This document shows positions 9,471-45,689 of a stretch of 64,000 bases of DNA, piece after piece (within the stretch, counting starts at the first letter, position 1; every line of letters begins with the position of its first letter). A model generated the notes under the pieces. The model had not been told where the DNA came from. It saw nothing but the letters and a program-made list of their open reading frames with translations, and ran no database searches. The DNA is from Eledone cirrhosa (taxonomy: Eukaryota). Location of the stretch: the NCBI GenBank assembly GCA_964016885.1, contig OZ024743.1:264678001-264742000 (forward strand), written 5' to 3'. A program made the position numbers and the translations under genes.

Positions 9471-12428
9471 TTTACATGCACTTGTACTAATACTGTATCT
9501 ACATATATACATACAGATAGAATGGGTAAAGCGAATAGAAAGAGTGAAGCTAATCAATAAATGGTGAAAGAGGAATCAAAGATAGAAAGAGAGAGAAAGA
9601 TAGCAGGGTAATGTGAGAGAGTAAGAAAGTGGGAAGAGAGAGTGACAAAGCATGCAGAGATATGGACGCTAGAAGATACATTTTGCCTGTTACACAGTGA
9701 ATGCTTCTAATGGAACAAAACAATAATTATGACTACATTAATTGCACCTTAATAACCTTCATATATATCTACGACTATAAACATGAACTATAATCCCCTT
9801 TTCTTTATACTGATTGAACCTTAAGTAGAAAATGCACAGATTGATATAAGCGCCCGGCATGTTTTCCATATATAACTAAACCTTTACCGTATTTTTAAAT
9901 ATGTATTTCAATATATATTTATCATAGAATACTGAAATCATTTGTGTAGAGCCAACATATTTTAATCGTACAAAATATATTAAATATACCAGACTAAACA
10001 AACATTTTGTGCACAAAATATACTAGACTGTACAAACATTAAGGCTAAACAAATGAAAGTGGTATTATGTTCATCTAGCAACCCCAGTAAAGGATGTCCA
10101 TATATACATACATAACATGTATTCAACGCATTCTCATCGTAAATCTTTCTAATGGGGCAGAACAAGCTAAAAATGAACGTTGATGTAAATGTATCATTAA
10201 TTCTGTAAGGCAAAATGAGCCAAGGTGTGTACGTCTATGTCGTCGATTAATCCGTTAATACAGCTGTCGAACCTCCAACGCGATAGTTTCAAAAAAGGAA
10301 TGACACAATTTATAACGCACATGTAGTTACACCGTTGTAAATAAAATGAATAATCAAAGAGATTGCAGCTGGAAGGTATTTAACAATCGCACTATTTAAA
10401 CCTCACGTTGAGATGAACAGTGAAAATACATGCTAACGTCTTCCAAACGTCTCACAACTATCTTTCAAATTATAACCCACTTTTCCTTATAAAAAGGAGG
10501 AAATATATAATACCATAGCCATAGATATGCATAGGCTTGTAAATTACTTGGTGTAACCGTCGCTGTAATTTCTTTAGTGTAACAATTTCTTGATAATTTT
10601 CGATATTAACCATCCATGTTATTCTTAGTTTTCTTCTTTTTCCATGCGTTTTGATTTCTCCTAGTTGTCACTCTGTAGAATTTGTGTAATTAAATGTCTT
10701 CATTTTGATGTTGGCAAATAAACGTTTCTTTGTTTTTGGCAAGCCTAAAACTACATTGCGTTTGTGTTATGTCCATAATATTCTTTATATAAGTAGAAGA
10801 ATTAAATGAATATATATATGCTTAATTAGTTTCTGTCATGTGAAACGCTAAATTAGCGTCTATAAAACCGTCAATTGTTGAAAACCAAAACACCATTGTC
10901 GATGATATGGTCATCGTTTTCATCATCAATATCGGCGTAGTCAATATTGCATTTGTCATCATAATTCCTCTGTCATCGATCGCACTATAATCGTTATGAT
11001 GATCATCATAATTTGTTTTGAAAACAAAGACTTACTCCCATCCTCTTACCAGACTCGGAAGTCCTAAAATGTCATGGGCGCTGTTATTCCTTCACTGACA
11101 AAACGGCAAAAACACCACTGAAAGAATTTTGTACTTTGTTCTTTAACATTGATTTTTTATTACTTGGTCTCTACCTCATACAAAAACCTATTTTCAGATA
11201 TACACATATGTAAATATATCACATGATCCCAGTAGAGACTGACGTGATAAAGAAAATATACATCACCCGTAATCGCAGTTTCCATCGGCAAAATATTGAC
11301 ATGGCTAGCAAGTAACATAAAAAAGAAAATTCTCTTCTATATATAAAATAATCTATAAGGAAATGGACAAACTAATTTCGGCGTCTGCACCAGAAGCAGC
11401 TCATGTATCCAAATATTGCTGTTATAAGCAGAGGAATATGTTGTTATTCAAGGAGCAACACACTTCAATAAAAGACTTGGAATTTCCTTATATAATGCAA
11501 TTTAACATTACATTCCCTGAGAAAACTAAACGCAGCAACGTTCATGTTCTCACTAATCGTTTTTAATGCACACACTTTGACCAATTAAAATGTTTGGTTT
11601 ATGAGAACTGATGTATTAAGTGTTATTTAACGTTCTTAATATGACATGAACACTAATTTAGTACTCCTAAAATGTTCATTCATATCGTCATCTCGCTCGG
11701 CGTCTATGATTCACAAATGAAATACAAAAGTTGATCCATTTTAAAGCGAGATTATTTTATTGGTGTCTCCAACTTTGGAAAGCAGATTTAAGTCTGTATT
11801 ATTCCAAATTAGGAATGTAATTAATGTTTAACTAAGAATTAACATGTCCTAATATCGAAACAAATTTGACTCAAAAATTAGATTGTCATGGATGGTCTGT
11901 TATAGATACAGAATTTCGGGGATAAAATAATTTTCGTGTAGGCCGCTTGTACATAAGCGCCATCACAATATAATATGAGTTAATAAACAAATCAATCAAA
12001 AATTTATTTCATATTAGATTCTCGACCTTGAATGAAATCATTAATTTGTTTCAATGGAGTGATTTTGGTTTCGCTGAATATTAACCTCGTCGTTTCTTTG
12101 TAAGCTGGGAATACTGATAATCGATCAAATTACTCAAGGGATATTCACAGATATGCCACTACACCAAAAAATAGTCAAGTAATACGATATATATGTGATG
12201 AAGAAGGGTTTTACCAATGAAAAATATTATCTATTATTCATTTAGGAAAATAAAACATTTTTACTATTAGAGGGTGAAAGAAAATTAATATATATATATA
12301 TATATATATATATATATATATATATATCTATATATATATATATATATATATATACATATATACACATATATATATAAAGAAAGCATTATTCATTCTTTAT
12401 ATATATATATATATAAATAATGAATAAT

Positions 12429-12456
12429 GATTTCTTTATTAACCTTAAGGGTTTAC
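12429..12456 (-). mobile_element. 28-bp 5'-truncated Tx1 3' tail with a 16-bp TSD
   Basis: - strand gtaaacccttaaggttaataaagaaatc matches the copy 3 end gtaaacccttgtggttaataaagaaatc. Flanked on - by ATTATTCATTCTTTAT (12457-12472) and ATTATTCATTATTTAT (12413-12428). Confidence 0.75.
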
Positions 12457-12493
12457 ATAAAGAATGAATAATAACAGGTAAACATCATAAAAA

Positions 12494-14679
12494 GGTCACT
12501 CGTCTGAATCATATGGTTTTAAATCATGTAACCCCCCCCCCCCAAACCCCCATCTCGATGCTTTCGAACAAGACTTAATGAATATGACCATGAATATTAA
12601 GTTTACCAAACATAGAAGTAATGAGCTGCAAAGCAACATGAAAGCACTACTCCGAAGACTGCAAAATACCAATGGAATTGTTGTGAACGCTGACAAGACC
12701 TCTAACGTGTATACCAGGGATATCGATGCATACAACAGCTTCATACGCAAAGAACTACACAAGAAATATAGAAAAACAAGTGAAACTACGTTAGTAAATA
12801 TTAACAACGAGGCATACAAGGTGGTGAAAAATCTCAAGATAGACGATAGAACCGAGCCGATTATACCCGCAACCCCCACCTTTAACCTGAAGGACCATAA
12901 GGTAAATTTTGACTCTAACCCTAAGATTAGACTTATATGCCCTTCTAAATCAGACATAGGAAAAATTTGCAAACATATACTTGACAGAGTAATAACTCAA
13001 TTGAAAAAGAAAATAGAAATTAAATTATGGGGCAACACTAGCGAAGCAATTCGCTGGTATAATAACGTTAAGAACAAGAATAAATCTAAGTTTATACAAT
13101 TTGACATAGACGAATACTACTCTACAATCTCACACGGCACTTTACGTAAAGTCCTATCGTTTCCTAAAGTCAATTCCGACCTAACGGAGGACGAAATTAA
13201 TATTATCCTAGAGGCTAGAAAAACTATTATCAAGTTTGATAACTGCTACTGGGAACGTAAGGACAGACCCACAAACTTCAACATTACCATGGGCTCCAAC
13301 GACTCAGCAGAGGTCACCGATCTTGTGGTAATTTACATAGCCCACATACTACATGGTAAATTTAGTAATCTACAGAGGGGAATATATAGAGATGACGAGC
13401 TCTTATTAGTTAATAACTTAAATAACCAAAATCTTGAAAGGCTACGGAAAAAAACATTAGAAAATCTTTAAGTGAACTGGGTCTAAAAATAACGTACGAA
13501 TACAATCTTAAAGTAGTAGGTTTTCTAGACGTAACTCTTAATTTAAATACCGGACTGATACGACCCTTCCACAAAATAAATGAGAACCTTACCTATATCG
13601 ATTTTAACTCAAACCACCCACTTTCCATGATCAAATCGGTTACCCGTAGTATTTCTCTTAGAATCTCTCGCCTATCGTCTGACTCTGAGATTTTCAGTGA
13701 ACATGCTGAATACTATAATAATGCATTAAGGAATGCCGACCACCGGGATACAATAGAATACATTGATAAGAACCCCCATAACACACATAGCTCTACACGA
13801 AATCAAAGAATACGTAACCGGGGTACAGAAATACAAGCGCACACACGCAGTACCACCAGACATACTAATAATAGAAAATCATCACCAAATAAATCACGTT
13901 GTAGAAAGTATATCTGGTATAATCCCATTTTTAATGCTTCGATTAGTACAAAACTATCTCTTTCATTCTTTAAGTTAATCAACAAGCATTTCCCTAGTTC
14001 CCATTAATACAGTAACATTCTGAACTCTAAAACTATTAAACTATCATACTCCACTGCACCAAACCTTGAAGCATACATAAACAAATTTAATTTAAAGCAA
14101 TTAAACAACACTACAAAACAAAATATTTTAATAACAGATGAGCATAACGTAGTATCGGCCTCCCAACCACTAAATGGGAGACGGGTATTACACAACCCAC
14201 CTGTACTGTTATCCCAACCTATCCATGGTATACCCGCTACCCACAATAAAAACTGTAACTGCCACCTACCTGAAAGATGTCCATTGAAGAATAAAGGCCT
14301 AAAGTCCAACATTGTTTACCGATGCACTGTTGAATCGAACGCCCAGAAATGGTATTACATCGGGTCTACCACTACTTCCTTTAAATCTCGCTGGTATCGT
14401 CATCGATTCTCAATTAAACATCCTAATCACCGTTTTGTGACCACGCTCGCCAACAAGACCTGGCAACTCCGTGAACGCAACCAACAGTTCACTTTGAAAT
14501 GGGATATATTTTCCAGCGCTAGTGCATATCGGAGTGGATTGAAGTACTGTAGGTTATGTAACCTTGAACTCTTTTACATCTTAAAATCCAAAAATAAATT
14601 ACTAAATGATAGAATCGAACGATCATTATACTGCAAGCACAAACTGAAGGCTAAATTCTCTCACTATAAAATAACTTAA
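12494..14679 (+). pseudogene. PLE RT + GIY-YIG endonuclease ORF, disrupted
   Basis: ORFs 12578-13471, 13627-14007 and 14284-14679 are joined by a frameshift near 13470 and a TAA at 14005. Confidence 0.88.
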
Positions 14680-45300: not shown

Positions 45301-45334
45301 CTTGATGTCAGCCCTTGTGGCCAATAAAGAAATC
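39355..45334 (+). mobile_element. L1/Tx1-clade LINE, copy 2 (divergent subfamily, decayed)
   Basis: ORF1 from 39418 with CCHC knuckle CYLCGSKCHLRAFC. ORF2 from ATG 41638 to 45024 with APE and RT motifs, frameshifted. Ends gcccttgtggccaataaagaaatc-(TTA)n. 5' boundary approximate. Confidence 0.93.
39757..39902 (-). mobile_element. SINE (internally deleted) inserted in the Asn-codon repeats of Tx1 ORF1
   Basis: tgtttctacgttaggcacaaggccagc...gatttgaactc...aatccacc is the reverse complement of the SINE. Confidence 0.88.
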
Positions 45335-45411
45335 GTTATTATTATAAAAGTAGAAACGATAATTATCATTATTATTATTATCTAAAGGTTAGCTACTATT
45401 ATTCGTATTTA

Positions 45412-45595
45412 GGGCGGTGGATTGGCAGTGTTGGTAGAGGGTCGGACACCATGCTTTCTAGCATAGTTACGTCCCTTTACGATCTGAGTTCAAATCCCGC
45501 CGAGGTTGACTTTGCCTTTCATCCTTACGGGGTCGATAAAATAAAGTACCAGTAATGCACTGGTGTTTGCTGGCCTTGTGCCTAAAGTAGAAACA
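45412..45595 (+). mobile_element. tRNA-derived SINE, full length, 14-bp TSD
   Basis: TSD attattcgtattta at 45398-45411 and 45596-45609. Confidence 0.92.
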
Positions 45596-45689
45596 ATTAT
45601 TCGTATTTAAGTTATTATTATTGTTATTTACAATAAGTAATGTATTATTATTATTTGTATTCTTATTATCGCTATTTATATGTTGGTTG

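Follow-up and report, generated by a model that had tools for sequence, protein, structure and literature searches.

A short interspersed element (SINE) of ~185 bp and a lineage of L1/Tx1-type long interspersed elements (LINEs) in the genome of Eledone cirrhosa enter DNA at the same target, Y-ATTAT(T), and duplicate it. The target comprises five strong bases, a preferred T in sixth position and a pyrimidine (Y) lying just outside the duplication. The relationship was noticed in a stretch of 64,000 nucleotides (assembly GCA_964016885.1, contig OZ024743.1, positions 264,678,001 to 264,742,000 of the forward strand; hereafter the window) and was followed through the 3.0-Gb genome. On balance we think it probable that site choice passes two filters, in which the LINE endonuclease would nick the opposite strand at ATAAT/R (R, purine) and the freed end would then pair with AUUAU on the RNA of either element.

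Target word of the SINE and the LINE

The six target-site duplications claimed for the window by the original prediction are all present (Table 1), five exact and one with a single mismatch. Their lengths are 9-17 bp, two lie on the minus strand, five bracket copies of the SINE and the sixth brackets a 28-bp piece of LINE 3' end. Read in element orientation, 6/6 open with ATTATT, and C or T stands before the upstream copy in 6/6. Because ATTATT occupies a fraction of only 0.0017 of window positions, and 0.00094 in 1 Mb sampled genome-wide, this uniformity lies far beyond chance. Two further SINE copies of the window have no readable duplication, one at 39757-39892, where GTTATT follows, and one at 5506-5692, within an ATT run.

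The genome is 36% GC and has many ATT runs, and ~2 Mb of its sequence was read in all. An unbiased set of 100 evenly spaced 10-kb stretches (1 Mb) yielded 259 non-redundant SINE matches, of which 142 include the 3' end and 137 have flanking sequence. With the 3' copy of the duplication taken to start right after the element's last base, exact duplications of at least 9 bp were found at 42 of the 137 copies, compared to 2 expected from permuted flanks. At a threshold of at least 8 bp there were 48, from which seven with another SINE end directly upstream were removed; 35 of the 41 retained begin with ATTAT and 25 with ATTATT, and the other six are one base off ATTAT. A second set of 243 other loci, the window included, was chosen by searches and is biased to that extent; its 285 copies gave 94 duplications, of which 16 tandem ones were dropped and 78 kept, 64 beginning with ATTAT and 45 with ATTATT. 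The duplications are mostly 8-21 bp long. The predicted ATTATT start thus describes the six window pairs in full, but the genome at large only in its first five bases.

Enrichment over the AT-rich background was evident when strands were compared: ATTAT stands just upstream of 43/116 non-tandem SINE copies, the reverse word ATAAT of 5/116 (p=3e-10), and random genomic sites score 3.5%. Exact matches to the 24-nt SINE end number 150,741 in the whole genome (8,587 + 4,728 + 137,426), and ATTAT follows directly in 123,857 of them. The LINE end has 7,554 exact matches, with ATTAT after two bases in 6,797 (90%), and (ATT)n precedes 8/8 full-length LINE copies among 20 fetched as well as several 5'-truncated ones. 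By the published definition, in which more than 20% of flanks show one target type (PMC4494074), the LINE is microsatellite-specific, with 90% of its 3' ends and 8/8 of its full-length 5' ends. The two elements differ in tract length: six or more ATT units follow 23/31 LINE ends (from a sample of 31-35 copies obtained by similarity searches) and 2/99 SINE ends, compared to 2.9% of genomic Y-ATTAT sites.

Head-to-tail SINE runs with one copy of the same duplication between units were seen at L008, L015, L021, L028, L128 and L134; they may have arisen by sequential insertion or by tandem duplication. At L147, L229 and L053, non-repetitive sites contain other very short LINE-tail inserts, again with clean ATTAT duplications; at L147 the duplication runs into the 5' junction of a SINE.

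Empty sites

The (UUA)n RNA tail that had been proposed for the SINE was not borne out, for the duplication starts directly past the last SINE base and the element itself ends without (ATT)n. Between the SINE end and the duplication, no clear case of additional ATT units or of a 3' transduction came to light, the 31 matches in a later register being mostly single substitutions. Empty sites carry the word, as had been anticipated. The paralogue L162 of the host sequence at 12457 holds the 16-mer once and lacks the insert (1/19 other matches reached the site), and a clean paralogous match (at least 82% identity) was available for 10 of 117 reconstructed sites, each with the duplication once; the remainder were matchless, matched their own locus only or matched simple repeats. 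Sixty loci were selected because their 3' flank departs from the canonical word; in ~9 of them both duplication copies share one variant, in ~6 the variant is confined to the 3' copy, as expected of later mutation, and about half are without a resolvable duplication. Since variant targets are common to both copies in the first group, the word on the 3' side belongs to the target. At +1 and +2, which correspond to the 3' end of the primer, mismatches are tolerated.

Copies truncated at the 3' end were considered as a test of pairing. Of 69 examined, one candidate has a duplication in unique sequence (L123), which can be explained by later deletion, and the others are satellites derived from the SINE head. 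The satellite arrays at L027, L234, L227 and L103 have as their unit the first 44-45 (or 30) bases of that head.

The base preceding the duplication

A pyrimidine precedes the upstream copy in 41/41 cases of the unbiased set and 72/78 of the second set, together 113/119, whereas C or T precedes 61% of genomic ATTAT words (pooled p=1e-17). The preference persists outside ATT and AT runs (42/47 vs 47% background), where C leads (27 cases); in the unbiased set C accounts for 17/35 against a background of 17%. A is found at this position in 5/119, its background being 27.5%. The base is situated outside the duplication and, on the cut strand, 3' of the presumed nick. The last base of young SINE copies is A in 103/104, so that pairing with the RNA would favour A precisely where A is rare; the -1 base is consequently not set by RNA pairing, and the endonuclease likely helps to pick the site. 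These figures are most simply read as a nick at ATAAT/R, likely the same T/purine step as in the TTTT/AA of L1, and the hairpin loop of the L1 endonuclease touches bases just past the nick, which is the position of the -1 base here (PMC8565326). Participation of the enzyme, likely on these grounds, does not imply that it reads the whole ATTAT word. The earlier suggestion of an APE (apurinic/apyrimidinic endonuclease) nick at AATAAT and/or annealing of an RNA tail can thus be narrowed, the -1 pyrimidine pointing to the endonuclease, while the ATTAT core itself may be read by either enzyme or RNA.

Shared 3' end and the sister families

Over the last 25 nt, the SINE and the two ATT-type LINE tails of the window are identical at 15-18/25 positions (p 0.0005-0.016 vs shuffles). 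SINE and LINE tails have a hairpin of three pairs and a five-base loop, located 12-13 nt before the end. In an alignment of seven related rows, 21/21 cells are paired and 2/3 pairs have changed on both sides, which gives modest evidence of a common small 3' hairpin with compensatory changes. The SINE end is without a T4 terminator, and the LINE has AATAAA 6 nt before its end. ARAGORN and Rfam returned nothing for the SINE. Words resembling A and B boxes are visible by eye, and the SINE may be tRNA-derived; it may also resemble the octopus OK/OR SINE families.

A natural contrast is provided by sister LINE families that sit in (ATCT)n. These are ~65% identical to the ATT type in the reverse transcriptase (RT), have a similar 3' hairpin and include intact open reading frame 2 (ORF2) copies in L323, L329 and L333/L334, with the L334 endonuclease encoded at 2389-3108. 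At least 6,083 exact tails of the ATCT type exist genome-wide; 24/30 unselected 3' flanks start with a pyrimidine followed by ATATCTA, and ATCT repeats precede nine of the truncated 5' junctions. In the protein tree the ATCT-type families form one clade (support 99/100), and target follows tree. Endonucleases of the two types are ~60% identical, with 41 fixed differences that include I194S, aligned with Pro197 of L1 at the tip of the loop. The SINE keeps to one of the two targets, TCTATCT being found after only 2/150,741 SINE ends. Because the SINE is nearly absent from ATCT sites despite the similar tails, it is the target, not the tail, that ties it to the ATT-type LINE. The SINE-Tx1 link that the common target was predicted to support is in this way made specific to ATT-type LINEs over their (ATCT)n sisters, with Tx1 itself a reasonable label. 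Sister loci, among them head-to-tail arrays, are L293-L342, L119, L122 and L135.

The LINE protein

The LINE ORF2 matches the Pfam families Exo_endo_phos, RVT_1 and zf-RVT, in the arrangement of an N-terminal APE endonuclease, RT and C-terminal zinc finger. The endonuclease announced from 59995 onward in the window is there but frameshifted near 60500; an intact ORF2 of 1,139 amino acids lies at L144:5758-9174, its endonuclease part at 5758-6477. Given this intact frame and a second copy 99.5% identical to it over 3,417 nt (one stop), the ATT-type family is young. The closest solved RT is human L1 ORF2p (E=3e-52), compared to R2 (E=1e-21), the PDB matches being L1 and R2 only. An alignment-based model of the endonuclease fold (pLDDT 93.8) has the human L1 endonuclease as its top match (TM 0.83), with invariant catalytic residues; a single-sequence fold was dropped at pLDDT 36, and a PDB search with the truncated endonuclease of the window gave a chance match only. 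Judged by RT similarity and modelled fold, the LINE is a member of the L1 group (L1/Tx1). The narrower label Tx1 appears reasonable; the outgroups of the tree were unnamed sequences. A CCHC zinc knuckle in ORF1 is a feature of the Tx1 clade, and the ORF at 39872-41098 (ORF1) has C-x2-C-x4-H-x4-C, with no Pfam match. Protein matches of 38-44% identity may represent relatives in other animals; a metagenome scan detected no relative.

Discussion

The observations that any mechanism must accommodate are the common target, the -1 pyrimidine, the register of the duplication, the 3' hairpin and an intact APE-RT frame. In the reading we favour, ORF2p would bind LINE or SINE RNA at its 3' hairpin and the endonuclease would cut the opposite strand at ATAAT/R. 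Transcripts are envisaged to run past the element into the duplicated target of their source copy, as could be expected from a SINE end without T4 terminator and from a LINE AATAAA placed so close to the end, and would therefore present AUUAU just beyond the element. Pairing of AUUAU with the nick would set the start of reverse transcription, with the consequence that neither tail nor poly(A) is copied. Nicking of the second strand 8-21 nt away would generate the duplication and recreate the target, thus allowing copies to stack head to tail.

Several points weigh against this reading. Nick specificity and mobilisation of the SINE are predictions from sequence. The tail does not name the partner of the SINE, since ATCT-type tails are at least as similar: the last 30 nt of young SINEs score 30.5 against them and 19-25.5 against ATT-type tails. 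The three-pair hairpin was equalled by 13/500 shuffles, and one LINE copy folds otherwise. The preference of the LINE for long tracts and of the SINE for short sites is not explained by one enzyme alone. Variant targets could derive from variant source copies, and to that extent do not separate enzyme from RNA as the reader of the ATTAT core. An exact duplication at the register is lacking in 89/137 copies of the unbiased set, and the search-picked second set may contain segmental duplicates. Empty alleles were sought in other individuals, and contigs from four public runs over 23400-25800 gave no usable joint, being swamped by SINE copies.

Whether RNA pairing sets the target, with a loose endonuclease that prefers only the pyrimidine/purine step and with productive pairing restricted to ATTAT nicks facing read-through AUUAU, can be judged from several of the same data. 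It would account for the exact start register, the absence of a copied tail and the tract lengths that differ between LINE and SINE. The near absence of the SINE from ATCT sites, despite the abundance there of LINEs with a similar hairpin, fits a need for pairing as well, and RTE-related SINEs are described to switch target along with their 3' repeat (PMC6007223). We nevertheless regard it as unlikely, because the enrichment of C at -1 exceeds what a generic T/A step would give, the endonucleases of the two types differ at fixed positions that include the loop tip, target tracks the protein tree, and the Tx1L endonuclease is sequence-specific in vitro (PMC1950540). An extended form of the idea, similarly doubtful, is that in these tail-less elements the target passes to each copy from the previous duplication by way of read-through RNA, the enzyme contributes little beyond the T/purine step, the RNA word picks the site and the sister lineages changed microsatellite (ATT vs ATCT) through a change in the sequence their RNA runs into. 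If true, this would amount to an RNA-retargetable element of the L1 group, with a SINE of >150,000 copies recording its site choice. The converse, that the endonuclease alone sets the target and a complex of protein and hairpin determines where reverse transcription begins, making RNA-DNA pairing unnecessary, seems to us rather improbable. It draws on the -1 pyrimidine, on the tolerated mismatches at +1 and +2 and on the precedent of R2Bm, which works without pairing (PMC6007223), but it leaves the long-tract and short-site preferences unexplained and, the hairpin loops being shared, does not by itself explain the absence of the SINE from ATCT sites.

Another carrier for the SINE was also considered. 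The minus-strand elements of 46.3-57.7 kb, with a restriction-like endonuclease and which we take to be Dong/R4-like, are abundant in the window and use the same microsatellite; moreover, with ~2 Mb of 3 Gb read, a LINE with a closer tail may exist elsewhere. As partner of the SINE, the minus-strand elements are excluded by the reverse word AAT on their sense strand (17/17 and 11/11 ends, 28/28) and by 3' ends unlike that of the SINE (p 0.26-0.91). In a scan for similar tails, with 60/118 matches viewed, the element-like matches other than the SINE were of L1/Tx1 type. Mobilisation by these or by an unseen family is accordingly very unlikely. Least credible of all is an artefact in which an (ATT)n tail and AT-rich flanks produce chance matches forced to start with ATT. 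A genome of this composition invites the suspicion, but the permuted flanks (2 vs 42), the strand test (43 vs 5) and the empty paralogues holding the word led us to reject it.

The system finds close analogies among known elements. Kibi and Koshi, at (TC)n and (TTC)n, and crocodilian Tx1 families at (TTCC)n/(TTTC)n (PMC4494074, PMC3812793) are likewise APE-type non-LTR (long terminal repeat) elements of the L1 group that stack in a microsatellite. The target here is, as predicted, unlike theirs, being (ATT)n/Y-ATTAT (with (ATCT)n in the sisters) and including short unique sites; the comparison is one of published descriptions. Keno, in turn, targets U2. In the case of Tx1-Mar and SINEU, a SINE was assigned a Tx1-type partner by common target and tandem copies sandwich the duplication (PMC4494074), though there with U1/U2 heads and a Mariner target, here with a 3' hairpin, a word of 5-6 bp and >150,000 copies. 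Human L1 and Alu (PMC1950540, PMC8565326) share the endonuclease fold, the T/purine nick (presumed here) and a duplication opening with an RNA-pairable word; the present elements differ in that no poly(A) is copied, the 3' hairpin is conserved, the word is ATTAT and G is favoured just past the nick. RTE-related SINEs, whose 3' repeats are linked to the first base of their duplications, form LINE-SINE pairs with a common duplication signature, undecided there also between enzyme and pairing (PMC6007223), but their signature consists of a single base and a stretch of T upstream, compared to five to six bases plus the -1 pyrimidine and a LINE of the L1 group. Dong, the only element listed for TAA repeats, uses the same microsatellite (PMC3812793); the L1/Tx1-type elements use its other strand, whereas the Dong/R4-like ones of the window read AAT on the sense strand and have no APE before the RT (RT match only).

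The behaviour in general is known from fish and crocodilian elements; the target appears to be new, an extension rather than a new principle. The target of Mutsu, for comparison, is 5S. Site choice by microsatellite-targeting APE elements has been called not well understood (PMC3812793), and SINEs that share their tail with an L1-clade LINE are rare, at 3 among 58 pairs (PMC3747384). For Octopus vulgaris, 13 recently active L1-Tx1 families and 893 unclassified SINE families are reported, with targets unnamed in the part of that source considered (PMC13282606), and the corresponding parts of PMC4758252, PMC4824008 and PMC3747384 name no partner for this SINE. Literature searches gave no account of an ATT-targeting Tx1-type family or of the partner, within a coverage that excluded Repbase, older SINE/Tx1 papers and supplements, which may hold one.

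Our study has importance in providing a SINE of at least 150,000 copies with a target rule and a likely carrier, and in explaining the head-to-tail pile-up of SINEs and LINEs in the ATT runs of this genome. The -1 pyrimidine suggests participation of the enzyme from sequence alone. The enzyme-or-RNA question becomes directly accessible by swapping, given two sister lineages that have intact frames, similar tails and different targets, only one of which is followed by the SINE.

Other features of the window

The window contains three broken plus-strand APE-RT LINE copies and several minus-strand RT elements with a C-terminal nuclease-like end.

Table 1. Insertions of the SINE and the LINE in the window, with their duplications in element orientation
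Positions	Strand	Feature	Duplication	Base -1	Basis
1..5486	+	Broken L1/Tx1-type LINE copy (ATT type), cut by window start			
5506..5692	+	Full-length SINE inside ATT run after first LINE copy	Unreadable within run		
12413..12428	-	Downstream copy of 16-bp duplication	One mismatch to upstream copy		Sequence
12429..12456	-	5'-truncated LINE tail, 28 bp (hairpin, AATAAA, end)	12472-12457/12428-12413 (16 bp)		Sequence; empty paralogous site in L162
12457..12472	-	Upstream copy of 16-bp duplication around LINE tail		T	
24090..24307	+	Full-length SINE 24107-24290	24090-24106/24291-24307 (17 bp, exact)	C	
24858..25015	+	5'-truncated SINE 24871-25002	24858-24870/25003-25015 (13 bp, exact)	C	
31458..31538	-	SINE 3' fragment 31474-31522	31538-31523/31473-31458 (16 bp, exact)	T	
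38712..38823	+	5'-truncated SINE 38721-38814	38712-38720/38815-38823 (9 bp, exact)	C	
39757..39892	-	5'-truncated SINE in 5' part of second LINE copy, then GTTATT	None of at least 9 bp		
39872..45334	+	Broken L1/Tx1-type LINE, second ATT-type family; ORF1 with CCHC knuckle; 5' limit approximate			
45398..45609	+	Full-length SINE 45412-45595	45398-45411/45596-45609 (14 bp, exact)	T	
57705..57734	+	(ATT)n tract preceding full-length LINE			
57735..63653	+	Full-length but broken L1/Tx1-type LINE (ATT type)			
from 59995; frameshift near 60500	+	Endonuclease of LINE 57735..63653			
to 63416	+	RT and zinc finger of LINE 57735..63653			
63630-63640; 63642	+	3' hairpin; AATAAA of LINE 57735..63653			
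63654..63704	+	(ATT)n tract following full-length LINE			

At 46300-57734 the minus-strand RT elements form a stack, in which every element has (AAT)n at its end and lies within the tail of the one before it. The insertion site of the LINE at 57735 is a tract of this type, entered in opposite orientation, with the effect that two enzyme classes occupy one microsatellite, one per strand; the same is seen at L031, L034, L044, L046, L048 and L055. Beside the 28-bp insert, a second LINE-tail remnant with the same 16-mer lies inverted at 12376-12428 around a TA run, giving a short palindrome. A SINE 3' remnant of ~12 bases (45346-45357) immediately follows the tail of the second LINE. RT and GIY-YIG fragments, the latter by a weak Pfam match and both presumably Penelope-like, are located at 12491-14679, 20052-21138 and 32143-33873.

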